Assembly (NCBI GenBank): GCA_965370415.1
Contig: CBDUTJ010000013.1
Location: 2,030 to 66,029, forward strand
Source: an uncultured bacterium
GTDB taxonomy: Bacteria; Cloacimonadota; Cloacimonadia; Cloacimonadales; TCS61
Length of the DNA: 64,000 nucleotides
Direction: 5' to 3'
The notes under the pieces are model-generated. The model saw only the letters and a list, made by a program, of their open reading frames with translations, was not told the DNA's origin and made no database searches. The translations under genes were made by a program, and so were the position numbers. This document shows positions 599-40,954 of the stretch, piece after piece (position 1 is the stretch's first letter; every line of letters starts with the position of its first letter).

Positions 599-691
599 TT
601 TAATAATCCCCTACTATGTCTAAAGTATTAGGGTGTATAATGTTCCGTGTATGCTGTGGGATTCTACAGATACACCTGTTAGCAGCTTTTT

Positions 692-3501: not shown

Positions 3502-3589
3502 AAAGTTGCTGCTAATGTTTGGCAGCTGCCACGCTCTACCTGCTTTTCTTCTTGCTTGGCTGTGGAGCTGTTTGTTAGCAGCATCTTTC
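3502..3589 (-). repeat. intercistronic long hairpin, short form (copy S1)
   Basis: GCTGCTAA...TTAGCAGC outer stem and CAGCTGCCAC...GTGG-AGCTG inner stem. It sits between the stop of the 3590 gene and the RBS of the 692 gene. Related copies lie at 5842, 9851 and 11903. Confidence 0.65.
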
Positions 3590-5827
3590 TCATTTCAGTA
3601 GCAAACACTTTTTTACTGCTTCGGTTTTACCATTCACATTTAATTTATAAAAATACAAACCTGAACTTACTGAATTTCCCGATTCATCATCACCATTCCA
3701 GAGAATTGAATGAGTACCTTTATCAAATTCATTGTTAGCTAGATTTTTAATTTTCTGTCCTTTAATATTAAAAATTGAAATATCAATATCAGAATCATTT
3801 TGAATCGAAAATTCAATTGTTGTTGTGGGATTGAAGGGATTGGGAAAATTATATAATTGATAATTTTGAATTAAAGCAATTTCTTCATCTATTATGCTTA
3901 TTCCATTTTCGTTATAGGCAACTAAACCACCTCCTCCAGTATAATTGGTAGCAGTAATCCACTTAGTTCCATCCTCATCAATTACAACATTTTTAACATA
4001 ATCTGCAGGCATACCAGAATTAGAATTATCATAAAAAGTCCAATCATTACCATCAAAACGAACTAAACCACTGTACATTGTACCAAGCCATTTTGTTTGG
4101 TTTTCATCAATTGCTATAGAAAAAACACAATTATCAGGTAATCCAGAGTTATTTGTATTATAAATGGTCCAATTCGTACCATCAAAATGTACCAGACCTT
4201 CATATTGGGTACCAATCCATAATGTGTTATTAATATCTATGGTTATTGATTTTATAGTGTTATCTGGTAATCCGGAATTATTAGTATTATACACTGTCCA
4301 GTTTATGTTGTCAAAACATGCTAATCCCCCTTGATTAGTTCCAATCCATTTTTTCCCATCAGCATCAATTGCGATACAGTTGACTCCATCAGAAGGAAGT
4401 CCTGAATTAATTGTATTATACAAAGTCCAATTTGAACTATCAATACTTATTACACCTCCACGCTGATCAAAGCCCATAGAGTGCATGCCAACCCATTTTG
4501 TATTATCCGATTCAATTACAATACATTTAATATTTTTAGATGTAAGAGCAGAATTTTCGTAATCATATACTGTCCATTCAGAGCCATCAAATTTAATTAA
4601 ACCATAAAAAAGGGCTCCAAACCATTTCGTACCATTATTTTCACAAGCTATTGCACGAATATCATCCTTAGTTAGAGGTGTATTAGAAGTTGTATAAACA
4701 GTCCATTCCGTTCCATCAAATCTTGCAAATCCATTATTTGTTCCAATCCATTTTGAATTATCAATATCAATTGCAAGAGCTGTAGGATGGTTGTTTGGCA
4801 TTTCTGAATTACTTGTTTCGTGTATAAACCAATTAATATCATCGAAACTACTTAATCCTCCAGTATGTTGCCATGTTATATTTCCAATCCACTTTGTGTT
4901 ATATTCATCAATTATTATTGATTCAACCGTATTACTCGGAAGATCTGAATTTTCAACATTGTACACTATCCAGTTTGAACCATCAAAACTTACCAGACCA
5001 AAGTGTTCAGCCCCAATCCATTTTTTTTCATTCTGATCTATTGCAATTGAATTAACAACGACAGATGGAAGCCCTGAATTTGTAGTATTATATATTGTCC
5101 AAATATTATCATCAAAGGTTGCTAATCCACCATAGTGTGTTCCAATCCATTTTGTTCCAATTGAATCAATTACTATTGAAGATATATAATTTGCAGGCAA
5201 TCCAGAATTGTCAACAGTGTAAATAATCCAATCTAATCCATCAAAACAAGCTAAACCTCCGTTCATATTTTCAAAACCGTGAGTTCCAATCCATATCCTG
5301 CCATCCTGCTCAAAAACAACTGGTCCCACATTATTAGCTGGTATTGGTGAGTTATATGTATTATAAAAAACCCAATCATTATCATCAAAAACGACTAAAC
5401 CATCTAATCGGGTACCAATCCATTTTTTGCCATCCTCATCAATTGTAATAGAATTAATCTGATTATATGTTAGGGGTGTATTTTCACTATTATATACAGT
5501 CCAGTTCGTTCCATCAAAACTTGATAAACCGCCATAATTGGAAGTGACGCTGTTGCCAATCCACTTAGTTCCGTTCTCATCAATAGCAATACAAGAAATA
5601 CTATTAAAGGGCAGACCTGAATTAGCACTATTGTAGAATTCAATTTCTTCTGTCTCCATATTGAGTTTAACGAGCCCACCTTCTGTTCCAATCCAATTGA
5701 TATTTCCTTCAATTGCCTGACAAGTAACATTATCACCATTGGTGTATTGTACCCATTCTGAGTTTTGAGCTGACAATGAAAAGGATATTAGGATAATAAA
5801 ATAAAATAATAACCTGATCTTTAACAT
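3590..5827 (-). CDS. secreted beta-propeller protein (two-component-regulator-propeller-like repeats) with T9SS sorting domain
   Basis: About 14 repeats of the pattern WIGT..GGL..FDG..WT.Y...NS.LP.N.V..I.ID. C-terminus NFPNPFNPTTTIEFSIQ...KKCLLLK. Start moved to the ATG at 5827 (MLKIRLL...), which has GGAGGA upstream; the track start at 5839 is a TTG inside that RBS. Confidence 0.85.
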   Translation of the reverse strand: MLKIRLLFYFIILISFSLSAQNSEWVQYTNGDNVTCQAIEGNINWIGTEGGLVKLNMETEEIEFYNSANSGLPFNSISCIAIDENGTKWIGNSVTSNYGGLSSFDGTNWTVYNSENTPLTYNQINSITIDEDGKKWIGTRLDGLVVFDDNDWVFYNTYNSPIPANNVGPVVFEQDGRIWIGTHGFENMNGGLACFDGLDWIIYTVDNSGLPANYISSIVIDSIGTKWIGTHYGGLATFDDNIWTIYNTTNSGLPSVVVNSIAIDQNEKKWIGAEHFGLVSFDGSNWIVYNVENSDLPSNTVESIIIDEYNTKWIGNITWQHTGGLSSFDDINWFIHETSNSEMPNNHPTALAIDIDNSKWIGTNNGFARFDGTEWTVYTTSNTPLTKDDIRAIACENNGTKWFGALFYGLIKFDGSEWTVYDYENSALTSKNIKCIVIESDNTKWVGMHSMGFDQRGGVISIDSSNWTLYNTINSGLPSDGVNCIAIDADGKKWIGTNQGGLACFDNINWTVYNTNNSGLPDNTIKSITIDINNTLWIGTQYEGLVHFDGTNWTIYNTNNSGLPDNCVFSIAIDENQTKWLGTMYSGLVRFDGNDWTFYDNSNSGMPADYVKNVVIDEDGTKWITATNYTGGGGLVAYNENGISIIDEEIALIQNYQLYNFPNPFNPTTTIEFSIQNDSDIDISIFNIKGQKIKNLANNEFDKGTHSILWNGDDESGNSVSSGLYFYKLNVNGKTEAVKKCLLLK

Positions 5828-5841
5828 TTTATCCTCCAAAA

Positions 5842-6146
5842 GTTGCTGCTAACGGCGGCGTGCCACGTCATCTTGCCATGAGCATTGGATATGATTTTTC
5901 ATATCCTGATGCGATTAGTAAGATGATAAAAGACGAGCAAATCAAAGTCGAGGGTTGCTGATTTGCAAGTCCCCGTGGACGTAGTATTAAACGATATTCC
6001 GCTTCGATACGGTTGCGAGTCTTTTTTAGTGGCACGCCGCCGTTAATCAACATGGAGCGAAGCGGAATGTTGATTAATGGTTGGCAGCTGCCACGCTCTA
6101 CTTGCATTTCTTCTTTGTTGGCTGTGGAGCTGTTTTTTAGCAGCAT
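5842..6146 (-). repeat. intercistronic long hairpin, long form (copy L1) carrying a nested insertion
   Basis: Same outer arms as S1 (GCTGCTAA / TTAGCAGC, CAGCTGCCAC / GTGGAGCTG), but about 225 nt are inserted between GCTGCTAA and TGGTTGGCAGCTGCC. Confidence 0.65.
5853..6077 (-). ncRNA. candidate structured RNA / MITE-like element (copy 1), unclassified
   Basis: 14-bp closing helix CGGCGGCGTGCCAC (5853-5866) / GTGGCACGCCGCCG (6029-6042). Internal hairpins GGATATGA/TCATATCC and GCAAATCA/TGATTTGC. Terminal hairpin TTAATCAACAT...ATGTTGATTAA (6043-6077), whose loop CGAAGCGGAA complements TTCCGCTTCG (5997-6006). A second copy at 11914 shows compensatory changes. Confidence 0.55.
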
Positions 6147-6151
6147 CTTTC

Positions 6152-8287
6152 TTATTTCAATAATAGACATTTCTTAACGGCTTCAGTTTTTCCATTTACA
6201 TTCAATTTGTAGAAATAGATTCCTGAACCGACTCGCTTATCATTAGAGTCCTTGCCATTCCAGATTACTGAATGATGTCCTACTGATAGTTGATCGCTGA
6301 TAAGTGTTTTCACTTTCTGCCCTTTGATGTTGTAAATGTCGAGAGTCACAAACGAGGATCCGTCTGAGCCGGACATAGCGTTTTGTGTTACAAAAAAGCT
6401 GATAATTGTAGACGGATTGAAAGGATTGGGATAGTTATGCAGGTCTGGTTCCCATGGAATAATCTCATTTTCGTCGGATTCCAATAATCCATCTAAAGAT
6501 ATCACAGCAAAACCACTTCTACTATTACTTGTAAGTAGATTGTCATCAACTAATATCATCTTAATAATTCGTCTGCAGCCACGATAATTATTCACTAAAA
6601 TAGGTGTAGTGGGATTTGAAATGTCATAGATAAACAACTCATTCCAACTTGCATCAGCAATTATTAGATCATTACCGTCTATTATAACCGGAGCAGTAAA
6701 TTCAGAATCTTCATGAGGTTGAATAGAAGTAATAAACATAATGGAAGCAGGATTTGATATATCCAATAAGATAACTCCACTTTCAGCGGAAACATAAAGA
6801 ATATTATCATTTATTTTCATCCCACCCACAAATCCGTCGATAGAATAAAACTCAACCAACTCTGGAATTTCCGGATTTGTGAGATCGATTATTTTGATTC
6901 CCTGCTGAAAGATTGCATAATATACATACCCGTTTTTTGCTTCCTCAGCCGTTTTCAAACCAAAATCATAATATCCGCTGATTTCAGATATTTCAAAAGG
7001 ATTGTCGATTGAATAGAACTTAATCTCAGCAGAGTCAAATTCAATGAGGATATCTTCCATAGTCAATAATTTATCGCCACCTGGAATTGATTCAAATGTG
7101 CTCAGTAATTCAGGTTCAAGAGGATTGGATAAATCATAAGAATAGATATTAATCCAATCTTTTGCAAACAAAACATCATTCCATAATGTAAAACTATAAA
7201 TATCATCTTCAGCATTGGGAAACTGAAGATATGTTGGTTCTTCCAAGTCCGAAAGATCAACTATGCCAGCCATTTCATTGTGATCATAACTAATATACAC
7301 AGCATTCTCATATAAATCCATATCTGCTGGAACGGATAGCAAATTACAACTGCCAATGCATTTTTCTTCTAAGGGATTAGAAAAATCTAATATTTGCATT
7401 CCTTCCCATCTTGTAATATCAAAAGCAATCTCATCAGAAACTATAAAGCCTTCAATAATTGCCCAGCTATCATACATTCCCAATGGATAAAGTTCAAAAT
7501 TTTCGGAAATCTGATATACATCGATTCCTGAACCATGCGAATATAGTATATTTTCTTCTACAACAAGTGGCATGCCAACCCCTTCTTGAGATGATAACTG
7601 TAACGGTTCCAAAGGATTGCTGAGATCAAATATATTTAGGCAATTTTGTTCTGCGTTTATATATAATTGTTCTTCATTTATGATAAAATATTCTGAGTAT
7701 GACGGGAGTTGACCGACCTGTGTGATATTATTAATATCTTCAATATTGAATATGTTTAAACCACCTTCGAAATACTGAACATAAGCAGCAGGCCAAACAA
7801 CATCAATGAGAATCGACCTCCAAAACTCTTCGTAATGTGCTTCGATAATTGGTGATTGTGGATTGGATACATCTACAAAATATAGACCTCCCTGACCACA
7901 AGCAGCATATAACATCTCATTTTTCACTGAAAGTGAAACACACCAATCAATCACAGGAATCATAGAAAGATGAATAGGATTTTCGGGATTTGAGACGTCA
8001 AAAATATCAATACGACCACCACCACCTATGTAGGCAATATCATCCTGTACAACAAAATCCTGAGCTATGGAATACATATTCGTTGTTGAAATTAATTCCG
8101 GGTTTCCAGGATCGCTGACATTTAATATACTCATTATATTCAACTCTAATAAATACAAATTATCGCCAATTAATACTCCATCAACTGAGATATATTCAGC
8201 ATGATAGTGCCCAATTTTATGGAAAACTGCATCCATATTAGAAAAACAGGTAAGCAGAATAAAAATTAATATTGTTATTTTTTTCAT
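6152..8287 (-). CDS. secreted LVIVD-repeat beta-propeller protein with T9SS sorting domain
   Basis: Repeated (I/V)xD(V/L/I)SNPxxPxxL motifs, at least 9 times (IFDVSNPENPIHL, FVDVSNPQSPII, IYDISNPTTPILV...). C-terminus [14 protein letters not shown]...GIYFYKLNVNGKTEAVKKCLLLK. The ATG at 8287 is preferred (GAGG upstream). Confidence 0.8.
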   Translation of the reverse strand: MKKITILIFILLTCFSNMDAVFHKIGHYHAEYISVDGVLIGDNLYLLELNIMSILNVSDPGNPELISTTNMYSIAQDFVVQDDIAYIGGGGRIDIFDVSNPENPIHLSMIPVIDWCVSLSVKNEMLYAACGQGGLYFVDVSNPQSPIIEAHYEEFWRSILIDVVWPAAYVQYFEGGLNIFNIEDINNITQVGQLPSYSEYFIINEEQLYINAEQNCLNIFDLSNPLEPLQLSSQEGVGMPLVVEENILYSHGSGIDVYQISENFELYPLGMYDSWAIIEGFIVSDEIAFDITRWEGMQILDFSNPLEEKCIGSCNLLSVPADMDLYENAVYISYDHNEMAGIVDLSDLEEPTYLQFPNAEDDIYSFTLWNDVLFAKDWINIYSYDLSNPLEPELLSTFESIPGGDKLLTMEDILIEFDSAEIKFYSIDNPFEISEISGYYDFGLKTAEEAKNGYVYYAIFQQGIKIIDLTNPEIPELVEFYSIDGFVGGMKINDNILYVSAESGVILLDISNPASIMFITSIQPHEDSEFTAPVIIDGNDLIIADASWNELFIYDISNPTTPILVNNYRGCRRIIKMILVDDNLLTSNSRSGFAVISLDGLLESDENEIIPWEPDLHNYPNPFNPSTIISFFVTQNAMSGSDGSSFVTLDIYNIKGQKVKTLISDQLSVGHHSVIWNGKDSNDKRVGSGIYFYKLNVNGKTEAVKKCLLLK

Positions 8288-8429
8288 CTTTTTCCTCACT
8301 ATTTAAAGTTTAATTCATATGACCAGTGGTTGATTTTGATTTTCATAAGTCCTTATTTTTCAACCACTGTGTCATCTTGAACTAAACTGAAACAATGTCA
8401 TATGTGCCCTTTCCTGTAGTCATATGATA

Positions 8430-9737
8430 CTATTTCATTAACAGGCATTTCTTCATTGCAATTTTCTTGCCATTTACTTTTAATTGATAAAAGTAAATTC
8501 CGCTGGAAACAGGTTGGTTGTTTTCATCAGTTCCATCCCAAATAATTGAAGATTGAAGATTGAATATTGAATATTGTCTAATTTGTTGAGCCTTGAGATT
8601 ATAGATTATCAGTTCAGTGTTTTCGGTGTTTTCGGTGTTTAATTCAAATGAGATCGTGGTAGACGGATTGAAAGGATTAGGAAAATTATTTAATATAGTT
8701 GCATTTATTTCTGTTAATTCATTATTTGAAGCAGATGTTAAATTTGTTGCTAAAAACACACCTATATCTGTTCCAACCATAAAATTGTGGGTATATATTG
8801 GATAAAACTCAAAGCAATAAACATCATTAATGCCGAGTCCTGCCCCAATCGATTGAACTTGCCCCCATTCTTCAGGTTCAACCAAATATAATCCACCTCC
8901 ATCTTTACAGCCAACAACTAAAAACCCTTCATATTCATAAATTCTATTGGGATAATAAAGCATATTTATGGAAGTAAGACCTGTAATTTCCCCGTTTTCA
9001 TACTCTACTCTATAGACCATATTTACATATCCACCGTCACCACAGGCAAGATATACTTCATCACTATTAGGATAGTTACGAACATAGATGTCATTAATAA
9101 CAAGACCGACATAAAATGAGTTGAAACTTCCATCATTTTCAATATAGATATCATAGTCAGCAGCAACAAAGAGAGTTCCATCACCATTTTCTTCAACATC
9201 TGTAACTTGCATAGAATTAAAGAAATCTATCGTTGTCCATTCATCACCATTTGACGAATAGAGAAGTCCTCCCTCTATTGTATAACCATAACCATAATAA
9301 AAACCGGAAGATAGCTTTTTCACAAAATGAGGGAAAAAGTGCCAACCTATCAATTCAAATTCTTGTGTTGCAACATCAAATTCATATAAACCATCACTAT
9401 TGCTACCACAACCAAATGCACAAAAAATTCGATTATTTTGATTATCCGGAACAATTGAGACAGCTCCAAGATTAGATGCAAAATTGAAAATGTTTAAAGA
9501 ATCCTGGTTGGTAAAATAGGCTAATCCTCCATCCATTCCTGGTAAAGCAAAAAGTAAACCGTATTCGGAAATCCCCGGTATTGATGAGAATTTCATATCT
9601 GCAACAGGTCTATCGATCATTGGATACATTTCATCCCAATCTCTGATTTGGGAAAAGAGCGCTGAATGGAATAAACATAAGATTAGAATAATGAAATAGA
9701 TTATTCTTTTTTTAGACAAAAAATTACTTAACAGCAT
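8430..9737 (-). CDS. secreted hypothetical protein with T9SS sorting domain
   Basis: Signal/TM-like N-terminus. C-terminus NFPNPFNPSTTISFELNTENTENTELIIYNLKAQ...GIYFYQLKVNGKKIAMKKCLLMK. ATG at 9737 with GGAGG upstream. Confidence 0.75.
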   Translation of the reverse strand: MLLSNFLSKKRIIYFIILILCLFHSALFSQIRDWDEMYPMIDRPVADMKFSSIPGISEYGLLFALPGMDGGLAYFTNQDSLNIFNFASNLGAVSIVPDNQNNRIFCAFGCGSNSDGLYEFDVATQEFELIGWHFFPHFVKKLSSGFYYGYGYTIEGGLLYSSNGDEWTTIDFFNSMQVTDVEENGDGTLFVAADYDIYIENDGSFNSFYVGLVINDIYVRNYPNSDEVYLACGDGGYVNMVYRVEYENGEITGLTSINMLYYPNRIYEYEGFLVVGCKDGGGLYLVEPEEWGQVQSIGAGLGINDVYCFEFYPIYTHNFMVGTDIGVFLATNLTSASNNELTEINATILNNFPNPFNPSTTISFELNTENTENTELIIYNLKAQQIRQYSIFNLQSSIIWDGTDENNQPVSSGIYFYQLKVNGKKIAMKKCLLMK

Positions 9738-9850
9738 AATAGCCTCCATTCTTGGTTAAAAAAATTATTATATTTTTAAGTAGAAAAAATAAATATCTTA
9801 TTTCTACACCCTAATTACAATATTAATAATCTTCTATTTTAAACAACCAA

Positions 9851-9928
9851 GTTGCTGCTAATGTTTGGCAGCTGCCACGCACTTTCACTTTCTCTTCTTG
9901 CTTGGCTATGGAGCTGTTTGTTAGCAGC
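9851..9928 (-). repeat. intercistronic long hairpin, short form (copy S2)
   Basis: GTTGCTGCTAATGTTTGGCAGCTGCCACGC...GGCTATGGAGCTGTTTGTTAGCAGC, directly after the stop of the 9936 gene. One arm substitution (GTGG to ATGG) gives a C-A mismatch in plus sense but a G-U wobble in minus sense. Confidence 0.6.
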
Positions 9929-9935
9929 TTCCTTT

Positions 9936-11879
9936 TCATTTCAATAATATACATTTATTCACTGCTTTAGTTTTGCTGTTAATATTTAATTTGTACAGAT
10001 AAACACCAGAACTAACTAATCTTCCAACTTCATCATCTCCATTCCAGATTATTGAATGATCACCTTTAGAAAATTCATCGTATGCTAAAGTTTTGATTTT
10101 CTGTCCTTTGATGTTATAAACAGATAAATCAATTTTGTTGTTATTTTGAATTGAAAAACTAATTGTTGTTGTTGGATTAAAAGGGTTTGGATAATTTGAT
10201 AAATTTGTGTTTAAACTAATTATATTAGTTTCATTTATCTCAGAATTATTGTCTTGGATGAAAAGGTAAAAACCTGAGTTGCCCTCTAAAACTGCATCAA
10301 ATAAATCATCATCGTTTATGCAAGAAAAGTCAATAGAAGAATTATAACCAACATTCACATTTAAAAAATCGTCCTCAATTACCTCAAATTCATATGAATT
10401 GATTTCAATTTGTTCAAGATGTCGAATAACACCTGACCACGTACCAATAAATAGATCAAATTTTCCATCATCATCAATATCTATTATTTTTGGACTTGCT
10501 TGCCATTGACCATTAATCTCAGATCCTAAGCTTATTGTTGAATGTTCAAAGTTGTAAGGATCATTTTCAGATTGAATAAATAATGAGATTGTGCCTTTTT
10601 CATCTCCTAAAAGCATATCAAGTACTCCATCATTATTTAAATCAGCGAAATCAAAACCAACTCCCCAAAACTCAAATTCTCCAATAAAATCAAAATCATA
10701 CGAATCTGGTTCGCATTGTTCCCAAATTGTTTGATCTATAATCATATCCATTAATCCATCTTCATCAAAGTCATAAAATTTAATTATTGTTGCTTCATCT
10801 ATTCCATTAAATTGTTCATCAAGAAGCTCAAATTGATACGAGCCAAAGTAATCTTGTTCATAGAGATGAATTGTTGGATTATTTGCTGTGAATAAATCCA
10901 TTTCATCATCATAGTTTAAATCAATGAAAGTATGATTTACTCCGTTTATGTTATGAAATTCTACTATACTATCATCTAACAAATAAAATTCATTTGGGTT
11001 TTCGATTGATTGTTCTAAAATAAAAACTCTTTCTTCTCCACCTGGTTGTCGTATGATGTAATTCAAGCGACCATTTTGGTTAAAATCTTTACAATAAAGG
11101 TTTTCTCCATAATAGGAAAATTGGATACCTGGCGTTAGATACTGATTTATGTTTAGAAAGTTATCATCAATTAAGGTTAGTTCAAATGTGTTTTCCATTT
11201 CTTGCTCAAACCTATAAATATCAATATAATTGTCTACGTTATCTTGAATTACAATATCGTAAAGACCATTATTATCAATATCTATTATTTGAGGAATGAA
11301 AAGAGATTGGATATCAGGGAAAATATTATTTTGAATCAGCTGCAAATCGAAACTATCCGATGTTTGTTGTTCAAAAATGTCATAATGATAACCTACGCCA
11401 TACTCACGAGTTATTATAATACAATCATAAAGCCCATTATTATTCATATCTGAGAAATTTGACATACCCCGCCAATCATCAATATTATAATTATTTATTA
11501 CAATAGTAAAGTCAAGAGAGTTAATTGTTTCCTCTTCTTCAAGTATCCAATTACCATATTGGCTATAAATCATTTCTCGAAGACCATCGTTATCTAAATC
11601 TGAAAATACTGGTATATACCTACTATGTAAACAATCTTGAAAATTTCTTTCAACAATTTCTAATTCATATGAATCAGGAGTAATTTGTTCCCACCGATCT
11701 GTTGGAAGACTCCAGTTACTATTGAGAACATCGAGTAATCCATCATTATCCAAATCAAGAATAATAAAATCTACGTATAGACCTGAACGACCCCAACCAT
11801 CATTTGTTGTTTCAGTAAAAGTTTGGCATTGCAAAAAACTAGCAAAACCAATAATCAGTAATATAAATAATTTTCTCAT
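9936..11879 (-). CDS. secreted FG-GAP/VCBS-like repeat protein with T9SS sorting domain
   Basis: Recurrent Ca-binding-type DxDxDGxxD motifs (DLDNDGLLD, DIDNNGLYD, DFDEDGLMD, DLNNDGVLD, DIDDDGKFD). C-terminus [17 protein letters not shown]...GVYLYKLNINSKTKAVNKCILLK. GGAGGA RBS. Confidence 0.85.
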   Translation of the reverse strand: MRKLFILLIIGFASFLQCQTFTETTNDGWGRSGLYVDFIILDLDNDGLLDVLNSNWSLPTDRWEQITPDSYELEIVERNFQDCLHSRYIPVFSDLDNDGLREMIYSQYGNWILEEEETINSLDFTIVINNYNIDDWRGMSNFSDMNNNGLYDCIIITREYGVGYHYDIFEQQTSDSFDLQLIQNNIFPDIQSLFIPQIIDIDNNGLYDIVIQDNVDNYIDIYRFEQEMENTFELTLIDDNFLNINQYLTPGIQFSYYGENLYCKDFNQNGRLNYIIRQPGGEERVFILEQSIENPNEFYLLDDSIVEFHNINGVNHTFIDLNYDDEMDLFTANNPTIHLYEQDYFGSYQFELLDEQFNGIDEATIIKFYDFDEDGLMDMIIDQTIWEQCEPDSYDFDFIGEFEFWGVGFDFADLNNDGVLDMLLGDEKGTISLFIQSENDPYNFEHSTISLGSEINGQWQASPKIIDIDDDGKFDLFIGTWSGVIRHLEQIEINSYEFEVIEDDFLNVNVGYNSSIDFSCINDDDLFDAVLEGNSGFYLFIQDNNSEINETNIISLNTNLSNYPNPFNPTTTISFSIQNNNKIDLSVYNIKGQKIKTLAYDEFSKGDHSIIWNGDDEVGRLVSSGVYLYKLNINSKTKAVNKCILLK

Positions 11880-11902
11880 AATTCATCCTCCAAATTTTTT
11901 AA

Positions 11903-12208
11903 GTTGCTGCTAACGGCGGCGTGACACGTCAGATCGCCATGAGCAGTGGATTTGAGCTTGCTCAAACTCCTGCTGTGATTAGTGAGCTGATAAGAGACGA
12001 GCAAATCAAAGTCAAGGGTAGTCGATTTGCGAGTCCCCGTGTACGCATTTTTAAACGATGTTCCGCTTCGATACGGTTGCGAGTTTATCATAGTGTCACG
12101 CCCGCTTTAACCAACATGGAGCGAAGCGGAATGTTGATTAATGGTTTGAGCCTGCCACGTTCTTCTTGTTTTTCTTTCAATCTGAATGTGGAGGCTTTTG
12201 TTAGCAAC
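11903..12208 (-). repeat. intercistronic long hairpin, long form (copy L2, partly degenerate) carrying a nested insertion
   Basis: Outer arms GTTGCTGCTAA / TTAGCAAC. The inner arms changed coordinately relative to S1 (AGCCTGCCAC / GTGGAGGCT versus CAGCTGCCAC / GTGGAGCTG). Confidence 0.55.
11914..12141 (-). ncRNA. candidate structured RNA / MITE-like element (copy 2)
   Basis: Colinear with 5853-6077. The closing helix is CGGCGGCGTGACAC / GTGTCACGCCCGCT, a compensatory C-to-A and G-to-T change versus copy 1. The hairpin GGATTTGAG/CTCAAACTCC occupies the position of GGATATGA/TCATATCC. The segment ...GACGAGCAAATCAAAGTC...GATTTGC...GTCCCCGTG...AAACGAT.TTCCGCTTCGATACGGTTGCGAGT... and the loop GGAGCGAAGCGGAATG are conserved. 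Confidence 0.55.
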
Positions 12209-12264
12209 ATCGATCTTAGATACAATAATACGATCAATGTTAATATTTATTTTTCTTACTAAAG

Positions 12265-12840
12265 TCACTTTTCCCTTTTATGATTTTTAAAAGATTTATT
12301 TTCAGTAGAAGTTGGGATGTTATCTCTCTCTTCCGTTGAAGCAGTTACATAATAGAATTTCTTATCTGTTCCCGTAATGTTAGAAGTCCAAGTTTGCCGA
12401 TTACGGGTTTCATCACTGATATTCTTTTTTGTTTTCGTATTTTGTTTTCGGGATGAATTTAGCTTGGTTACAGAAGTATCACTGGTCGTTGTTCCAAAAG
12501 TTCCTGAACTACTGATATCAACAAACTGTCCATAAGGATCATCCGAAGCAAAGATTTTATAAGAATTAGCACTTGTTACTTCATCCCAAGAAAGTACAAC
12601 ATTACCACTGTTTGTTTCAATGCTTATATTAGTAGGTGAGCCTGGTGGTAACTCAGAGCTTTGAATGATTAAACCGATTCGATTTCCAACATCATCATAA
12701 GTATAAGAAATTATAGTTCCATTACCGTAATCGACATTTGTTAACCGGTTGAGATTATCATATTGATAAGAGATATTTTGTGAAAAAATTGTTAAAGGGT
12801 ATATCAATATGATAAAAATTAATAAAGTATAATATTTCAT
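12265..12840 (-). CDS. small secreted protein with two YD repeats and a fibronectin-III-like module
   Basis: Signal peptide MKYYTLLIFIILIYPLTIFSQ. YQYDNLNRLTNVDYGNGTIISYTYDDVGNRI is YD-repeat-like. PGSPTNISIETNSGNVVLSWDEV..ANSYKIF...KKFYYVTA is FN3-like. AAGGAGGA RBS, 16 nt after the RHS gene stop. Confidence 0.75.
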   Translation of the reverse strand: MKYYTLLIFIILIYPLTIFSQNISYQYDNLNRLTNVDYGNGTIISYTYDDVGNRIGLIIQSSELPPGSPTNISIETNSGNVVLSWDEVTSANSYKIFASDDPYGQFVDISSSGTFGTTTSDTSVTKLNSSRKQNTKTKKNISDETRNRQTWTSNITGTDKKFYYVTASTEERDNIPTSTENKSFKNHKREK

Positions 12841-12856
12841 TACTATTTCCTCCTTG

Positions 12857-15800
12857 TTATTGACGCTTATCTTTTAAAATCTCCAATATTCGATCACATA
12901 ATTTAATTTTCATTAAAGATTCACTTATATCGGTTCCTAAAATCTTTCTAATGGGATCAACAAATGTCATACGTCTACCATTTAACAGATAATCAATAGC
13001 TTCGTCCAATGTCGATTCCCCTTCTACAACTTCTAGTGCTAGTCTATCAATATCCCTTTTTGCTGAGTCCAGTATTCTCTTTTGCGATTTAGAAATTTCA
13101 AAATAGGCGACCGTATAATTAATAACATCTCCAGCTCCAGATACATTCCCAGCAACTGACATTATACCAGTTAATAATGGATCGTCATCTTCCATGGAAT
13201 CAAGACCCTTTGGATCAATATTAATCAATGGATTATTCCCGGCATAAGCATACAAATTCACATCCCAAATCGGATCTTCAGAAATAAACCTTCCGATTTC
13301 AGGATCAAAGTATCTTGCTCTCATAAAATATAAACCATTTTCTTCATCCATTACGCCAAATTGCCCAACAAAGCGGAAAGCATTATCATCCTCTTCTTCT
13401 TGTTCCAAAACCTGTCCAAAAGGGCCATAAGAATATTTATGAGTAAGAATACCATTTTCATCTGTCATCGCAATGGTGCTTCCTATTGAATCATATTGAT
13501 AGTAACGAGTATTATTATTGTTATCAATACGAGAAACAAGTCCTAAACCATAAATGTAATAATTCATAACATTCCCATTCTCGTCAGTTTCCATTAGAAT
13601 ATTACTCATCTGCCCATTTATATCAAGAACATATCTTGTTGTAACACCGTTTTTTGTAGCCGTGCGTCTATTACCAAAAAGGTCATAAACATAATTCGTA
13701 TTATTTATATCAATATCAGTTAATCTGTCCAAAACATCCCAGGTATAATTTGTTGTCGTAAAGCCTATTCTTTGAGTCATATTTCCGTTTACATCATGAC
13801 TGAAAGACGCGGAACCAGCAGATTGAATTCTATTGGCGTTATCATAAGAATACGATTCATTCAAATCAAGTAAAACAGGTAATGGATAAGGTTCAGTAAT
13901 GTCCTCTGAAAGGTGGTTTCCAATCGCATCAAGAACATAGCCGTAATCACAGATTAATCCTTGTGGACCTGTTGTAGTATAATTAGTTAAACGACTATTG
14001 TTATCGTAATCATAATTTGTTGTACATCCATTTGGATTCTGTATTTGGTATAAAGTTCCATCTGCACGATAAGTATATGTTGTTGTATTCCCGTTCCAAT
14101 CCGTTACAGAATTTAACTGGTTGTTATCATAATATGTATAATTAACTGTTTTATTATCAGGATAGGTTATGCTTCCAATGTTGTTTGCATCATCATAAGT
14201 GTATTGAACAACATTCTCATAATAATCGGTGTAATATAATAAACGATTTAAGCCGTCGTAAGAATTCAGCCAAATGTCTCCGTTATTATCAGAAAGGTGA
14301 ACTAAGTTGTTATTGTCATCATAAGATAGACTTCCATTTATAGCGCCTCCAGACAAATTATTTAATTTGCCTTGATTGTCGTATGCATAATTAATGGTTT
14401 GACCATCCGGTTTGATTTTTGTTTGAATTTGACCATTATCATAATAATTAAAGCTTGTCTGTTGCGAAAGTGGGTTACTAATTGTAGAGACTAAATCCAT
14501 ATCGTTATACGACATTGAGGTTGTTTGACCTGATGTAGATATTGATGTAAGATTGTCATTAGAATCATAATCATAATTTGTGGTTATATTAGCAGCATTA
14601 GTCACCGTATCTAAAAGATCATTATTCAAATATGAATAAGCTGTAGTTTGATTATTTGCATTTATCTTACTTGTTAAGCGACTTATATCATCACAATCAT
14701 AAGATGTTGTATGCCCTAAATTATCGATTATACTGGTAACACTACCATATTGATCATAATAGTATGATGAAGTTTGAGATAATGGATCATTCACTTGATT
14801 AATCGTTCCGTCAGAATTGTAATTAATACTCATCGAACCAAAAGGAGCGGGTTTGTTTATTGATGTAATATTTCCATAACTATCATAACCATATTGATAT
14901 TGTTTTCCTCTTGGATCTGTGTAATTAGTTACATCATTAAAAACATTATATTCGAATTGATGAATTATGCTGTATGGTTTTTCAATTGATTCAGCATTTC
15001 CTATTATATCATAGTCTATCATTGTATCATAATTATTTCCGTCAGTGATAATTGTTGGTTTAGTTGGATTAGATGTGTCGCCATAGTAATATGTAAAATT
15101 ACTACCGGTTGTTAGTATGCTTTGAATTAAACCATCTATTTCAGAAGTATATCCATAATCTTGGATTATCCCGTTTGCATCAGTAATTCGTGTTGCTGTA
15201 GGAACACTGTTATATCCATAGTCTACGGATATAAATTGACCTGTAGAGCCAATATTTTGAGAAATAATTTTCTTATTATTATAAGAATTAGTGATTATAT
15301 TATCTTCTGGTAATTGTATTTGTGTCAATAAGTGGTCTTCTCGATGGTCGGTATCATAAGAATAAGTAGTATAATGTCCAACAGCATCCGTAAATTGTAT
15401 TAGATTGTTATCATTATCATATTCAAACTGAATATTACGACCAATCGGATCTGTTACCTGATAAATTAATTGTTCCTTTCCTGCTTCAGTATGGTAGGTA
15501 AATATTAGTACTCTTCCTTTCGGACCTATTACAGATGTAAGTCTTCTCTCTGCTTCCGGTATATATGAGCAGGTTATAGTATTGTTATTTCTATCAGTAA
15601 TTGACGTTAAAAATGCCGTTTCATCTGTAGTGGGATTTAGGATTTCAAAAGTATAAACAACTTGATTTTTCTTCTTAATTTCATAAGTATCTGAAATTTT
15701 TATCAACTCATCATATACACCTAATGTTATCGGTTCCAATGTACTATTGTCATATATATGTATCGTTCCACCGGGCCAGAAAACAAAGATCAATACATCT

Positions 15801-18211
15801 GATTCAAAGATATATGCACTATAATTATGACTCCATCCTGGTCCCAAAGAATTAATTGGGCACATTAACCGGGTTGAATAAGAGTTATAAGTATGAGCAA
15901 AATCAAGAGACATTCTGCCACTTGGGATAGAAAAACTTGTTTTTGTATAATGATTAAAATTTCCATTTTGAGGATTAATACCATATCCTGCTGAAGGTTG
16001 TCTTTCATTCCAGGGACGCATCGCTAAATTACCACTAAGTGAAACATAAGCAAGAAAACCCCAGTCAATATAATCCGCATTAAAAGCATTGTTTCTTTCA
16101 ATTTCACTTGTAGTATAGAAATTGTCATTTACAATAGGATTTCCAGAATCAAGGTAAACATAATACATTTTTACTAATTCAGTGTGTGGTGATCCGAAAG
16201 CATATCCAGTTATACCTTCATAATCCCAGCCTGCAATAATCTTATTATCTTTATCTGTTTCATCTGTGGTATAATAATGTCTGTTTTCGCTCGGAATGCT
16301 ATTTTCACTTCCTTTATATAATCTGAAAATATTTACCAGATCAGTTGTATCAAAAGGATATAGTGATAAATAACCTTCGGTTTTTTCATAGTTATAGCCA
16401 TCTGAATTTGCTTGAACTAAATGACTATCTGCAGTGCAATAAAAATGATCCATGTCTCCCGGATGATATGCTCTGTAAATAGGAACCCAATCAGGTTCAT
16501 CAAGTTTTGTTGGTGAATATGTGAAAGTGCTAACTGATGATACAATGGAATCACCATTTGCGAAAAAGCCTTTTACCTTCCAATAATAGTAATTCTCAGA
16601 AAGCCAATTTCCACAAAGCTCATACGATGTTCCGTAAATATCCTCAAATACTGAATGCCTGTCTGCAATTTCCGGTGAACCAAATCCTTCATTATTGTCT
16701 ACTATCAATTCGTAGTGATTTGCACCAACTTCAGTCCAACTAAAGATAATTTCTGATGTAGTTATTGTTTCATCTATTGTGGGGGTCAATAAACTGATTA
16801 CTGATGTATGAAAATTATATCCTTCTACCCATTGAGGATCATTTATCAAAGTTCCATTATTAGCATATTGAGTTTTATCATAAGCCACATTTCCAATGCC
16901 TTCATTAAAATCCCAGTAACCTACTAAATCTGTTGTATCTGCAGGATTGTTCATGTTAAGTTCACGATATATTCTTTCTTGGATTTCTTGCTGTGACAAA
17001 GCTCGTTTCCATATTCTGACTTCTTCAATCAATCCGTCAAAATGGTAATTGCCAATTGAATATATTGAAGCGCCTATTAGAACTTTTGAATTAGAATTGT
17101 AGATACTACCTGTTTGACCTAAACCTGTTCCTCTTTCTATTCCATCTACAAATATTCTTATTGTATTATCAAAAACATTATAGATTCCAGCTAAATGATA
17201 ATAGTTATTTAATACTAAAACACTATCAGCAGTAGCATTGAATTCACCATTTATTCCATCACCCGATACAGCAAATAATGCATACCCATTATCCACTCTT
17301 AATACCCAACTTCCTCTATTATCTGATTCCGTCTTCCACTTCGAGACAATATGAGCATCAGTAAATGAATCTGCTTTAATCCAAGCTTCTATTGTTATTT
17401 CATCTTGAATATCAAAGCTATCATCATTTCCACAATCGACATAATCATCATTACCATCAAAATCAAGAGCGTATTGACCTGAAGAATGGAACATTGTTTT
17501 ACTTCCAACTTCACCCCAGTTATCTTCTGAATCTTTAAATCGGACAAAGATAGTATGCAATCCTGAATCTAATCCTGTTGTGGATATGTCATTAAGATAA
17601 GCTGTAGCTGTTGAACTTCCAAACGATCCTGTTAAAAATGTTCCGTTTCCTTGCCCCGGATCTGTATCTATAAAATATTCTGCTGATATGATCACACCTG
17701 AATTCGGATTTCCTACATTTAGAAAAACTGCTGTTGATTCACCCCAATTATTATCTGAATCTTTGAAACGAACATAAACAATATGTGTACCAAACGAAAG
17801 CCACGAAGTTGAAATTCCTGATAATGAAGCAGTAGCTGTTGTACTTCCGAATGTTCCTGATAAAGATGTTCCGTTTCCTTCTCCCGGATCTGTATCAATG
17901 AAGTATTCAGCGGAAGTAATTATACCAGAATCAGGATTTCCTACGTTCAGGAATATTGCTGCCGGTTCACCCCAATTATCATCAGAATCTTCGAAGCGAA
18001 CATAGACAGTATGAGTTCCCAAAGAAAGTTCAGAAGTTGAAATTCCTGATAATGAAGCAGTAGCTGTTGAACTTCCGAATGTTCCTGATAAAGATGTTCC
18101 GTTTCCTTCTCCCGGATCTGTATCAATGAAGTATTCAGCTGATATGATTGTATTTGCAAAAGAAATTATTGGAAAGATACAAATAAATAATAAAATTAGC
18201 ATTATTTTCAT
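12857..18211 (-). CDS. RHS/YD-repeat polymorphic-toxin-like protein (signal peptide, 3 tandem N-terminal modules, LamG-like domain, DHFYT-type repeats, YD shell, variable C-terminal tip)
   Basis: 1784 aa. LDFDGNDDYVDCGN...W is LamG/ConA-like. YRAYHPGDMDHFYC, RHYYTTDE and DNFYTTSE resemble DUF5648-type repeats. Dozens of YD repeats (YxYDxxGN). RHS core end is RARYFDPEIGRFISEDPI...NLYAYAGNNPLINIDPKGL, followed by about 115 aa of unrecognised sequence. Confidence 0.9.
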   Translation of the reverse strand: MKIMLILLFICIFPIISFANTIISAEYFIDTDPGEGNGTSLSGTFGSSTATASLSGISTSELSLGTHTVYVRFEDSDDNWGEPAAIFLNVGNPDSGIITSAEYFIDTDPGEGNGTSLSGTFGSTTATASLSGISTSWLSFGTHIVYVRFKDSDNNWGESTAVFLNVGNPNSGVIISAEYFIDTDPGQGNGTFLTGSFGSSTATAYLNDISTTGLDSGLHTIFVRFKDSEDNWGEVGSKTMFHSSGQYALDFDGNDDYVDCGNDDSFDIQDEITIEAWIKADSFTDAHIVSKWKTESDNRGSWVLRVDNGYALFAVSGDGINGEFNATADSVLVLNNYYHLAGIYNVFDNTIRIFVDGIERGTGLGQTGSIYNSNSKVLIGASIYSIGNYHFDGLIEEVRIWKRALSQQEIQERIYRELNMNNPADTTDLVGYWDFNEGIGNVAYDKTQYANNGTLINDPQWVEGYNFHTSVISLLTPTIDETITTSEIIFSWTEVGANHYELIVDNNEGFGSPEIADRHSVFEDIYGTSYELCGNWLSENYYYWKVKGFFANGDSIVSSVSTFTYSPTKLDEPDWVPIYRAYHPGDMDHFYCTADSHLVQANSDGYNYEKTEGYLSLYPFDTTDLVNIFRLYKGSENSIPSENRHYYTTDETDKDNKIIAGWDYEGITGYAFGSPHTELVKMYYVYLDSGNPIVNDNFYTTSEIERNNAFNADYIDWGFLAYVSLSGNLAMRPWNERQPSAGYGINPQNGNFNHYTKTSFSIPSGRMSLDFAHTYNSYSTRLMCPINSLGPGWSHNYSAYIFESDVLIFVFWPGGTIHIYDNSTLEPITLGVYDELIKISDTYEIKKKNQVVYTFEILNPTTDETAFLTSITDRNNNTITCSYIPEAERRLTSVIGPKGRVLIFTYHTEAGKEQLIYQVTDPIGRNIQFEYDNDNNLIQFTDAVGHYTTYSYDTDHREDHLLTQIQLPEDNIITNSYNNKKIISQNIGSTGQFISVDYGYNSVPTATRITDANGIIQDYGYTSEIDGLIQSILTTGSNFTYYYGDTSNPTKPTIITDGNNYDTMIDYDIIGNAESIEKPYSIIHQFEYNVFNDVTNYTDPRGKQYQYGYDSYGNITSINKPAPFGSMSINYNSDGTINQVNDPLSQTSSYYYDQYGSVTSIIDNLGHTTSYDCDDISRLTSKINANNQTTAYSYLNNDLLDTVTNAANITTNYDYDSNDNLTSISTSGQTTSMSYNDMDLVSTISNPLSQQTSFNYYDNGQIQTKIKPDGQTINYAYDNQGKLNNLSGGAINGSLSYDDNNNLVHLSDNNGDIWLNSYDGLNRLLYYTDYYENVVQYTYDDANNIGSITYPDNKTVNYTYYDNNQLNSVTDWNGNTTTYTYRADGTLYQIQNPNGCTTNYDYDNNSRLTNYTTTGPQGLICDYGYVLDAIGNHLSEDITEPYPLPVLLDLNESYSYDNANRIQSAGSASFSHDVNGNMTQRIGFTTTNYTWDVLDRLTDIDINNTNYVYDLFGNRRTATKNGVTTRYVLDINGQMSNILMETDENGNVMNYYIYGLGLVSRIDNNNNTRYYQYDSIGSTIAMTDENGILTHKYSYGPFGQVLEQEEEDDNAFRFVGQFGVMDEENGLYFMRARYFDPEIGRFISEDPIWDVNLYAYAGNNPLINIDPKGLDSMEDDDPLLTGIMSVAGNVSGAGDVINYTVAYFEISKSQKRILDSAKRDIDRLALEVVEGESTLDEAIDYLLNGRRMTFVDPIRKILGTDISESLMKIKLCDRILEILKDKRQ
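17498..18151 (-). repeat. three tandem ~228-bp (76-aa) intragenic repeats at the RHS N-terminus
   Basis: The protein repeats IISAEYFIDTDPGEGNGTSLSGTFGS(S/T)TATASLSGISTS.LS.GTH.VYVRF.DSD.NWGE....FLNVGNP.SG three times. The third copy is more diverged. Confidence 0.8.
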
Positions 18212-31076: not shown

Positions 31077-31316
31077 TTATTTTAATATAACACATTTCTT
31101 AGTATCCTTAAAATCACCGGCAGTAATACGATAGAAATAGATTCCGGAACTTATATCCTCAGCATTCCAAACAACAGAATAATTACCTGCCTGTTGAAAT
31201 TCATTAACAAGTGTTTCTACTAATTGACCTTTGATATTATAAATCTTTAGTGACGCTTTGCTGGATTTCGGAAGAGCATATGAAATTGTAGTTTGCGGGT
31301 TAAAAGGGTTAGGATA
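31077..31316 (-). repeat. near-identical 240-bp duplication of the T9SS sorting-domain coding end (copy A)
   Basis: Matches 32483-32722 with only 2-3 mismatches by eye. The proteins differ by K to T in ...GDF(K/T)DTKKCVILK. Confidence 0.8.
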
Positions 31317-32468
31317 ATTATTTAAAATAAAAGAAGCATTTTCTATAGATGTTGTCATCTCATCATCAATTCCAACTGGTATTATTGGGCTGGCATACTC
31401 CAGGTCATAAGCATTCTGGTCGAAATAAGCGATACGAGGATGCTCCTGGTTATCTAAAGCTATTCGACAGTACCAACCGCCTCCCATTGGTTGGTTTACT
31501 ACCTCATTATGCCAATTTGAGCCATCCCAATATTTATACCATAAATTCCAGTTAGAACCAAGAGCTTGGTAATAAGCAATATGAGGAAAATCCTGGCTGT
31601 CTAATACAAGTGAATTAAAAGCTCCCGCATAATTTTCGCCGATTGTTGTAATGATCCAATCTGAACCATCCCATCTTGCATATCTCATATCACCACTATC
31701 TCTATAATATATTATGTGTGGAAAATCCTGGCTGTCCAATTTCAATGAAATATCTATGCTGCCAACATTTCCCCCGAAATATTCTACAAAATAGAAATCC
31801 CAACCGGTACCGTTCCATTTAACATAATTAAGGTTATTACCGTCTCCATAATAGGCAATACACGGGTTATCATTGGAATCAAGTTCAAGTGAAGTACCCC
31901 AGGCAAGACCATTAGACACAATCTCAATTTCCCAAGTTTGACCATTCCAGGATGCGTATTTCAAACAGTCACCGTAATTATCATAATAACTGATATGTGG
32001 ATATCCCAGACTATCAAGTTTTAAAGAATTAAATTCACCAACCCGCCCTGATTCATAATCTACCACCTGAAGGTCCCAGTATGTTCCTGTCCAAACAGCA
32101 TATTTAAGACAATAACTATCACCATCATCCCCTGTATAACTGATATGTGGATGATTATTACTATCTATTGCAATAGAAGTAACATCAGCAACAGGATATG
32201 TAATGTTTGACTGATCCACCATAGAGATTTCCCAATCTGTTCCATTCCAGAAGGCATATCTGATTATACTTGGTGGTGGCATATTAGGATAAAGTCTGCC
32301 TATGTAATAAGCAATATGTGGATAGTCAAAGTTATCAAGAGCAAGCGAAAGGTATCGTCTATGTTGATTTAATAAATCAGGATCAACAACCTCTATCTCC
32401 CATTCATAGGCAACAATTGCTCCTGAAATACCCAGAAGCATAACTATTAAAGCGATTACTTTTTTCAT
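31077..32468 (-). CDS. secreted repeat (propeller-like) protein with T9SS sorting domain
   Basis: About 8 repeats of LDS...PHI(A/S)YY......L.YA.W.G..W. C-terminus [33 protein letters not shown]...[22 protein letters not shown]. Confidence 0.8.
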
Positions 32469-32482: not shown

Positions 32483-32722
32483 TTATTTTAATATTACACA
32501 TTTCTTAGTATCCGTAAAATCACCGGCAGTAATACGATAGAAATAGATTCCGGAACTTATATCCTCAGCATTCCAAACAACAGAATAATTACCTGCCTGT
32601 TGAAATTCATTAACAAGTGTTTCTACTAATTGACCTTTGATATTATAAATCTTTAGTGACGCTTTGCTGGATTTCGGAAGAGCATATGAAATTGTAGTTT
32701 GCGGGTTAAAAGGGTTAGGATA
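32483..32722 (-). repeat. near-identical 240-bp duplication of the T9SS sorting-domain coding end (copy B)
   Basis: See 31077-31316. Confidence 0.8.
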
Positions 32723-37392: not shown

Positions 37393-37418
37393 TTTAGATA
37401 GTGAGAATAAACATCCCA

Positions 37419-38534: not shown

Positions 38535-38535
38535 A

Positions 38536-39042
38536 TTACCCCGCTTTAGCTAATTTTTTTTCTGTCTCTTTTTTCTTCTTCGCTTTTTTCATCTTTATCC
38601 TGTTGAACACTTTCTCTGCATCACTATGTAGATCGGCTTTTTCGTAAGTTTCATATAAGTAGCGGTCTTCCAGCATAGCCTCCAACACTTTTTTCGAAAT
38701 ATCCTTGAAATATTCAACAGCATAATGATACAGGTTGGGTTTTTCGCTATTATCTGATATTATCATATGCTTTAGTATCTGATCTTTCTGGAGGAAATTT
38801 TCTTCATCAGCATAATCACCTGCAATTACAATTCTATCGCCAGCCCAACTACCGATTATGGGGTCATCTGAGTGAAGATCACCTCCGCCGCGTCCGTTTC
38901 CATCTGATAGCAATACAGCCAGCGCTGTCATGGTCCCTTCTCTACTACAGCCAAATTCCAGGAGCTTTGCCCCATCATTGAAGGTATAGGTATTCAGAAA
39001 TTCCTGCTTATCGAGATTAACTATCTTGTAATATTGTCCCAT
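38536..39042 (-). CDS. hypothetical protein (168 aa), conserved-looking, function unknown
   Basis: MGQYYKIVNLDKQEFL...LLSDGNGRGGGDLHSDDPIIGSWAGDRIVIAGDYADEE..., with a lysine-rich tail. ATG at 39042 with GGAGGA upstream. Confidence 0.6.
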   Translation of the reverse strand: MGQYYKIVNLDKQEFLNTYTFNDGAKLLEFGCSREGTMTALAVLLSDGNGRGGGDLHSDDPIIGSWAGDRIVIAGDYADEENFLQKDQILKHMIISDNSEKPNLYHYAVEYFKDISKKVLEAMLEDRYLYETYEKADLHSDAEKVFNRIKMKKAKKKKETEKKLAKAG

Positions 39043-39054
39043 ATATTCCTCCAC

Positions 39055-39903: not shown

Positions 39904-39922
39904 GTTATCCTCCTTTATTTTT

Positions 39923-40924: not shown

Positions 40925-40954
40925 ATTATTTTCTCCTTTATTGTTTTTGGACAT

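Follow-up and report, generated by a model that had tools for sequence, protein, structure and literature searches.

The 64,000-nt window analyzed here (contig CBDUTJ010000013.1, positions 2,030 to 66,029, from an uncultured bacterium of the Cloacimonadota) begins with a row of genes that are each followed by an imperfect hairpin, and in two of these hairpins a gene-less block of 225 or 228 nt, termed X in what follows, is lodged at one fixed point. With moderate confidence, we interpret the hairpins as attC-like recombination sites of an integron-type gene-cassette array, and X as a gene-less unit placed at the crossover by the same recombination. The array is akin to a CALIN (a cluster of attC sites without an integron integrase), because there is no integrase nearby, and it is classified here as integron-like: it works like an integron array, yet fails two of the features that define attC. 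An earlier note on this DNA had recognized an insertion into hairpins; what it missed is that the hairpins behave as the recombination sites of a cassette array, and that X follows the boundary rule of the gene cassettes.

The window is AT-rich (∼35% GC), and its first 12 kb consist of co-oriented minus-strand genes for substrates of the type IX secretion system (T9SS; Por_Secre_tail/FlgD_ig C-termini). The imperfect hairpin, ∼80 nt long, begins 2–15 nt past the stop codon of each of these genes, and the ribosome-binding site (RBS) of the next gene lies 10–25 nt beyond each hairpin. The hairpins and inserts are located as follows:

3502–3589, minus strand: unoccupied ("short") type-1 hairpin, fold computed, after gene 3590–5839; crossover point between 3515 and 3516.
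9849–9930, minus strand: unoccupied ("short") type-1 hairpin, after gene 9936–11879; crossover point between 9861 and 9862.
5840–6150, minus strand: long form (hairpin plus X), from alignment.
11903–12212, minus strand: long form (hairpin plus X), from alignment.
5853–6077, minus strand: X copy 1, gene-less, 225 nt, made up of module B and module C.
11914–12141, minus strand: X copy 2, 228 nt, within 11903–12208, with compensatory changes relative to copy 1.
6078–6151, minus strand: type-1 hairpin core at the 3' end of a cassette holding genes 8430–9749 and 6152–8299.
12142–12212, minus strand: type-1 hairpin core, after gene 12265–12840, with its partner outer-stem strand at 11903–11913, across X.
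∼600–690, minus strand: decayed fifth hairpin, after gene 692–3487, with the 5' arm GCTGCTAAC retained and the 3' arm gone; probably the end of the array.

On the plus strand, the short forms (from 3508 and 9854) read GCTGCTAA↓TGTTTGGCAGCTGCC, and the long forms read GCTGCTAA↓CGGCGGCG...ATGTTGATTAA↓TGG (arrows mark junctions). By reading and by alignment, a long form differs from a short form by the addition of one contiguous block, X, which meets TAA at each junction, and the boundaries of X can shift by 3 nt because of this shared TAA; two short and two long forms differing by one precisely bounded block bear out the comparison of filled and empty sites on which the earlier note was built. 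Its length of 225 nt holds for the first copy and not for the second (228 nt), and the right flank it quoted for 11903–12208, TGGTTGGCAGCTGCC, belongs to 5840–6150, while 11903–12208 reads TGGTTTGAGCCTGCC. The sequence GCTGCTAA occurs nine times, against 1.05 expected. In gene sense, the core at 6078–6151 reads F (GCTGC)-TAAA...CCAACCATTA, and its partner outer-stem strand lies across X, at 5842–5852. Folded as the gene-sense strand, the two long forms reach z = −9.3 and −6.0 relative to shuffled controls. The outer boxes are all identical in this window (GCTGC/GCAGC), and it is for this reason that the earlier reader saw simple hairpins.

Related copies of X were found through a protein search with the spurious open reading frame (ORF) that is sometimes called over it, and their contigs were then compared. 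Pattern scans gave 70 loci from species-representative genomes and at least 120 from metagenomes; ∼200 related Cloacimonadota loci (designated by L numbers) were compared. The named genomes among the scan matches listed are mostly Candidatus Cloacimonadota, including Ca. Tenebribacter. Many of the at least 190 scan matches lie at contig ends (coordinates inspected, no tally), as is expected of repeats or polymorphic sites.

Integron recombination splits the core site, so that the first bases of a cassette are the complement of the inverse core in the attC that belongs to it, as described in the 59-base-element literature and in PMC5027507. Read in gene sense, a cassette of the present array would run from TTA and a box of 5–11 nt (G) through the RBS, the gene and its stop codon to the reverse complement of G (F) and TAAC, after which would come an asymmetric internal loop, a bulged stem and a variable top, ending in ...CA, with the crossover at ...CA↓TTA (TAA↓T on the plus strand). 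The comparison of loci agrees with this rule: among 46 informative pairs of neighboring hairpins, 27 have 5 nt after the first hairpin that are exactly reverse-complementary to the 5 nt preceding TAAC in the second, and 31 have them with at most one mismatch, against 2.5% under random pairing, while the same 5 nt matched the hairpin's own arm exactly in none of the 46. The complementarity to the next hairpin extends over 8–14 nt, whereas a hairpin's own outer strands on the two sides of X are weakly complementary outside this window (2.3 vs. 1.5 pairs). Joined to the 11 nt that open its own cassette, a hairpin is on average 8.3 kcal/mol more stable than in the context of the array (21 of 22 cases). 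Complementarity to the next hairpin and stability of the circular junction together constitute the classical signature of integron cassettes. Two gene cassettes in the window have such ends:

3516–5852, minus strand: gene cassette with TTA+GCAGCAAC, RBS, T9SS-cargo gene 3590–5839, then GATGCTGCTAAC and the hairpin.
9862–11913, minus strand: gene cassette with TTA+GCAGCAAC, RBS, FG-GAP/T9SS gene 9936–11879, then the hairpin.

Cassettes are also shuffled between genomes. One gene cassette stands behind a 122-nt hairpin in L025 and, 86% identical, behind a type-1 hairpin with X in L094, and the homology of these two loci sets in immediately after TTA↓ and extends through the hairpin downstream; L066 and L156 have the upstream cassette and hairpin in common and differ downstream. 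Past one identical 22-nt hairpin core, dozens of different sequences stand directly after CATTA, each of them leading to an RBS. The cassettes of L008 contain a PIN/DUF6364 pair, Fic and DUF4365 proteins, in addition to secreted proteins; such contents, with many secreted proteins, are like those of chromosomal integrons.

The ends of X follow the same pattern. X starts with TTA+ATCAACAT, and 8 nt on, past a 13-nt loop, comes its own F, ATGTTGAT+TAAC, which leads into hairpin C, ending in N-TTA. The start of X and its own F (8-mers) covary in five variant pairs, for example ATCAACAT/ATGTTGAT, AACAACAT/ATGTTGTT, and ATCAACCT/AGGTTGAT, and the base that follows TAA covaries with the one preceding the final TTA (C-G, T-A, A-T), the crossover-side base of module C being G, A or T with its covarying partner. 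Judged by these ends, X is bounded like a cassette with almost no content. Such a unit, placed between a hairpin and the next cassette, would produce the filled-site junctions seen by the earlier reader, and its cassette-type ends would make the TAA of the junctions the shared core of two recombining sites and not a target-site duplication (TSD). The insertion between hairpin and next cassette would be by site-specific recombination, probably on folded single-stranded DNA; the circular cassette intermediate, the strand used, and the enzyme are what we infer. On the plus strand, the opposition of TAAT and GTTA is a G.T pair rather than a C.A mismatch, and the plus strand is mildly favored as the folded strand.

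In other assemblies X occurs at a minimum of 52 distinct sites, and these agree with the earlier note that X is a discrete unit entering pre-existing hairpins at a fixed point and in one orientation, with TAA/TTA at both junctions: the left flank ends in TTA in 51 of the 52 sites and in CATTA in 49, a foldable TAAC...ATTA hairpin lies directly upstream in 46, and X is always co-oriented with the hairpin and the flanking genes. These genes vary between sites, and the flanking protein used to look for orthologous filled and empty sites has no homologue above 50% identity. X stands behind several unrelated hairpin families (about 45 to 120 nt, with different stems). Hairpins with one identical 22-nt core are unoccupied in 57 cases and carry X in ∼10 (67 scorable type-1 hairpins, ∼15% occupied), and the variants among loci include a hairpin only, a hairpin with B, a hairpin with B and C, and B and C behind quite different hairpins. 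Partial forms of X consist of B only (L094, L191, L180), of a B that ends after 11 nt (L025), or have C collapsed to TAACGGCGGCATTA (L166), and further collapsed or truncated remnants of C are found in L119 and L165.

The plan of the hairpins is conserved: across 84 type-1 hairpins the 5-bp stem covaries and both the bulge and CCAC/GTGG are invariant, and the same plan holds in types of 120 nt. The latter form a second hairpin family of ∼120 nt with a cloverleaf-like top (L008:4622–4738, 6923–7041, 8062–8178 and 9329–9447; L173, L042, L153); this top contains two conserved sub-hairpins (TGAATCTTCCGATTCA; GGAATC..GATTCC), and the base has the type-1 plan of TAAC, asymmetric loop, and CGTGT/ACACG stem. 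In several other loci X is cut right after the motif in its module B. At L055:3220–4800, and also in L104 and L113, X ends in ...GCTCCAT↓ and the gene of a small serine recombinase (resolvase/invertase type) follows, in tandem partial copies in L055; this recombinase was set aside, as it follows a truncated X in a single locus. In L122, L132, L187, L085, and L179, the cut is followed by a different conserved structured sequence (TATGAAAGACCTGAGACAGCAAGATATATAAGTAATGCTGTCC...GGCGAAATCGAAGAATCGCC...).

Several observations weigh against an integron-type array. No integron integrase is encoded in the window, in which 46719–47819 is an arm-binding tyrosine integrase by a tRNA and 42563–43933 a serine recombinase, and none was found in the ∼1.1 Mb of related loci by phmmer with IntI1 and the L156 integrase; the sole IntI-like match (L156/L066) reaches 172 bits, against a TIGR02249 cut-off of 265, and is without the IntI-specific insertion. 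Among the conserved AAC/GTT triplets of attC, where the crossover falls at G↓TT, AAC is present (in the 5' box, TAAC) and GTT is absent, the invariant core being TAA/TTA, and the crossover-side box is ATTA, not GTTA, in 49 of the 52 sites. Canonical attC sites have their extrahelical bases opposite the cleaved AAC (PMC5027507), whereas here the bulge and the longer side of the loop are on the crossover arm (3' in gene sense), the mirror image of attC. Module C is without the internal loop that is present in all gene-cassette hairpins, and the site of X therefore differs from those of the gene cassettes. Among the compared loci, there is no orthologous pair of sites with and without X in which both flanks are identical. 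Finally, the assignment of the crossover arm (and of the strand) is a probable one that draws on one good cassette pair and on the position of X.

The earlier note had seen no transposase in the window, and none lies next to X. Recombinase genes do occur elsewhere in the related loci. At L156:255–2248 and L066:464–2457, a XerC/IntI-like tyrosine recombinase accompanies an IS91-family transposase, ∼70–80 nt from a type-1 hairpin, and the pair lies antisense within a cassette-bounded unit, with G = ACTAAGCT and F = AGCTTAGT before the next hairpin. The possibility that this is an intI–attI arrangement was rejected, given that the pair is itself bounded as a cassette. At L047:1675–3071, an 86-aa GIY-YIG-like ORF divides the gene of a tyrosine recombinase into an N-terminal and a C-terminal ORF; the divided gene is on the same strand as a type-1 hairpin and ∼1.3 kb upstream of it.

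Within X, the following parts are distinguished:

6043–6077, minus strand: module B, a 35-nt hairpin; a 20-nt perfect palindrome, TTAATCAACAT and GTTGATTAA, split by the motif TCCGCTTCGCTCCAT.
5850–6045, minus strand: module C, ∼190 nt; a 17-bp closing stem, TAACGGCGGCGTGCCAC/GTGGCACGCCGCCGTTA, around a conserved branched domain of ∼160 nt.
5923–5951, minus strand: sigma-70-like promoter candidate, with −35 TTGACT in the family (TCGACT here), a 17–18-nt spacer and −10 TATCAT, facing the downstream gene.

The two copies of X in the window are 81% identical, and the family is ∼87% conserved across 28 distinct copies. The arms of the closing stem of module C (5850–5866 and 6029–6045) pair perfectly over 17 bp; this stem is what the earlier note had described as 14-bp inverted repeats, and it is terminal on one side only, standing 32 nt inside X (6046–6077) on the other. 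The stem of module B covaries in five variant pairs. Double compensatory changes occur in 15 of the 44 pairs of the consensus structure of X, and a three-way covariation (GTGaCAC/GTaCACG/CGTGtCAC) suggests putative alternative pairings. Of the unpaired positions of X, the −35/−10-like hexamers are among those that vary least, with a predicted transcription start ∼7 nt after TATCAT (near 5915, minus strand). At the 30 of 52 sites with a detected downstream ORF, this ORF starts a median of ∼32 nt beyond X, which may provide the next cassette with a promoter or a structured leader. A coding function was ruled out, as the ORFs over the two copies differ in frame or strand, and a diversity-generating retroelement with template and variable repeats was dropped, as the differences between copies are of all kinds, including indels. 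Rfam gave only a tRNA above the gathering threshold in the whole window, and over 5700–6300 its best match has E = 3.9 (scanned up to E = 10), which leaves no family for X or the hairpin; to our knowledge, nothing supports a group I or II intron, a retron, or an omega-RNA, with no Rfam match and neither a reverse transcriptase nor TnpB nearby.

The motif that splits module B, the removal of which leaves the perfect 20-nt palindrome, is not confined to X. On the other strand, module B contains ATGGAGCGAAGCGGAATG at 6052–6069, which includes d(GCGAAGC). A 12-nt core, TCCGCTTCGCTC, usually with CAT on both sides, is found in the window at 6052–6069 and 12116–12133, at L144:6935–6954, in L200–L223, in L112, L090, L114, and others, and as CAT-TCCGCTTCGCTC-CAT in many unrelated bacterial and viral contigs. 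Its other strand, ATG-GAGCGAAGCGGA-ATG (ATG GAG CGA AGC GGA ATG; 'MERSGM'), contains the hyperstable d(GCGAAGC) mini-hairpin, and it is located either exactly at a start codon, with the original ATG intact and GGAG added 9 nt upstream, or in a hairpin loop. Judging from these contexts, the motif looks like a tiny insertion that lands on CAT/ATG; we know of no mechanism for such an insertion, and a literature search for the motif string returned primers only. A complete IS200-type element at L144:6910–7700 occurs in four contexts (L125, L144, L155, L183), each time right after (A/T)TTA and beside a Rho-independent terminator.

The earlier note had proposed two kinds of transposition for X. If X were a non-autonomous element of the IS200/IS605 type (palindrome-associated transposable element, PATE), moved in trans by a Y1 HUH transposase, it would insert 3' of TTA where a hairpin exposes single-stranded DNA, with B and C as its end hairpins and the internal TAA as the guide for both cleavage sites. 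We regard this as unlikely, even though X has neither terminal inverted repeats (TIRs) nor a true duplication, enters strand-specifically after one short motif that also ends X, and has a hairpin at each end and, between B and C, an internal TAA able to pair with the TTA of either junction. The IS200-type element of L144, which encodes a 153-aa Y1 TnpA and inserts after (A/T)TTA, has the motif of the B loop in a hairpin 14 nt from its left end, beside a small CGGC/GCCG hairpin. This likeness is of 15–20 nt and amounts to the promiscuous motif, which many unrelated viral and bacterial contigs carry at start codons and in the loops of hairpins, and the orientation of the motif relative to the cleaved strand in X is the reverse of that in L144. 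Neither the window nor any of the Cloacimonadota loci (∼1.1 Mb in total) yielded a Y1 TnpA, and under this reading the agreement of the ends of X with the G/F rule of the gene cassettes would be a coincidence. The IS200/IS605 proposal of the earlier note has weak support, its one tie to the left end of an IS200 element (L144) being this promiscuous motif. The other proposal, a miniature inverted-repeat transposable element (MITE) of the TIR type, moved by a DDE transposase with a 3-bp TAA duplication, is extremely improbable. X is indeed small, multi-copy, and non-coding, and TAA/TTA does stand at both junctions; this triplet, though, is invariant and pre-exists as the core of every hairpin, occupied or not, so that it does not stand as a duplication. 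Its ends, ATCAACATTCC... and ...CACGCCGCCG, do not form an inverted repeat, one arm of the 17-bp repeat lies inside X, and no DDE transposase with matching ends was seen.

That the long form might be ancestral, as one composite structured element from which short hairpins arose by deletion between the two TTA repeats or by palindrome-driven slippage, had been named in the earlier note as the finding that would overturn an insertion. The conservation of the whole long form as a block (∼89%) in other contexts speaks for it, as do the variable, ragged endpoints of the partial forms, and we nevertheless judge it very improbable: X is ∼87% identical behind several unrelated hairpin types, unoccupied hairpins exceed occupied ones by ∼6 to 1, and all unoccupied hairpins stop at CATTA to the nucleotide, with a G box after it that fits the next hairpin, a pattern that random deletions would not yield. 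It is rather improbable, too, that X is a functional RNA or regulatory module (a promoter with a structured 5' leader, or an element of the 3' untranslated region of the upstream gene) that is kept by selection and spread through duplication of a gene with its leader and not by mobility of its own. Its strong folds (z = −6 to −9), the compensatory and three-way covariation, the invariant hexamers facing the next gene, and the short distance to the downstream ORF are in favor of such a module, whereas the genes on either side differ by site, there is no match to an Rfam family, and the counts of G.U vs. A.C do not favor the RNA strand. Function and mobility do not exclude each other, and this alternative concerns the purpose of X and not its arrival. 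We also entertain, as a tentative possibility, that the arrays were built by a hairpin-recognizing, non-canonical recombinase (a divergent tyrosine recombinase or an HUH/Y1 enzyme) acting on sites that mirror attC, with a TAA/TTA core and a bulge located on the crossover arm. The Cloacimonadota would then possess another cassette system, a second one of independent organization, that stockpiles T9SS cargo genes, and X would be its selfish or regulatory minimal cassette.

Other parts of the window lie outside the array. Directly upstream (in gene sense) of the first hairpin, 12265–18211 encodes a 1784-aa RHS-repeat protein and then a separate 191-aa RHS-repeat ORF, possibly a polymorphic-toxin locus that borders on the cassette array. 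A search upstream of the RHS genes for an attC-like site or a G-box partner, which could mark the start of the array or any attI-like site, found none. A 243-nt repeat (D6; 31077–31319 and 32483–32725), 99% identical, is found at the 3' ends of two adjacent T9SS-type genes, neither of which is followed by a hairpin, and its identity suggests a recent duplication or gene conversion. The region 37400–48070, next to a tRNA (47996–48068), is probably an integrated mobile element; it encodes the arm-binding tyrosine integrase (46719–47819), an HTH_17 protein, a MerR regulator and the large serine recombinase (42563–43933), as well as an AAA ATPase with a DUF2201 metallopeptidase/VWA pair.

If the interpretation as an integron-type array is true, it extends gene-cassette genome plasticity to the Cloacimonadota, an uncultured phylum for which the literature searched held nothing relevant on integrons or attC (under Cloacimonadota or Cloacimonetes), and the cargo would be large secreted surface proteins, not small accessory genes. 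The sites keep the logic of cassettes yet break two features by which attC is defined and detected, namely the GTT triplet and the side that bears the extrahelical base, and standard attC detection models may therefore under-detect such arrays. The cassette rule (the start of a cassette is the reverse complement of the 5' box of its own site) is a simple, enzyme-agnostic test that is applicable to any genome, and X provides a conserved 225-nt unit with which to probe the roles of gene-less cassettes, such as promoter, leader or folding aid.

Among known systems, the present array is close in plan to sedentary chromosomal integrons and CALINs, with which it shares co-oriented genes with an imperfect hairpin after each, cassette starts complementary to the inverse core of their own site, and hairpins that combine an R-box-like outer stem with an unpaired spacer, a bulge, and a top that varies; the 5' box, YTAAC, agrees with RYYYAAC, and shuffling between genomes, toxin-antitoxin cassettes, and gene-less cassettes are likewise common to both. 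Besides the departures in the crossover-side box and the position of the bulge, and with no IntI found in the window or the related loci, it differs from them in its longer complementary boxes (8–14 nt) and in its large cassettes (2–3 kb) of T9SS cargo genes. Gene-less, promoter-bearing cassettes have been documented in Vibrio superintegrons, and X is like those of the Vibrionaceae in being short, non-coding, cassette-bounded, and placed just upstream of the RBS of the next cassette, with conserved −35/−10-like hexamers (a predicted promoter) in the sense direction, the invariance of which fits promoter activity of the Vibrio kind; unlike them, X is a single family across many sites and genomes, and its site (module C) is a conserved, covarying structure of ∼190 nt and not a variable attC (PMC11014356). 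The PATEs of the IS200/IS605 group resemble X in lacking TIRs and TSD, in inserting after a short fixed motif that is repeated at the end of the element, and in their subterminal hairpins at both ends, single orientation and single-strand logic, features that are compatible with this group and not confined to it; the ends of X, however, match no known insertion sequence beyond the promiscuous 15-nt motif, and gene cassettes without a left-end hairpin have the same boundaries as X. Arrays of gene modules are also known from Acinetobacter, where pdif modules are separated by short recombinase (Xer) sites with inverted arms flanking each module. The flanking inverted arms are a feature of the present array as well, but its sites are hairpins of 45–300 nt, all in direct orientation, and the arms close a hairpin only in the circular form, which points to a folded single-strand substrate and not to a 28-bp duplex site.

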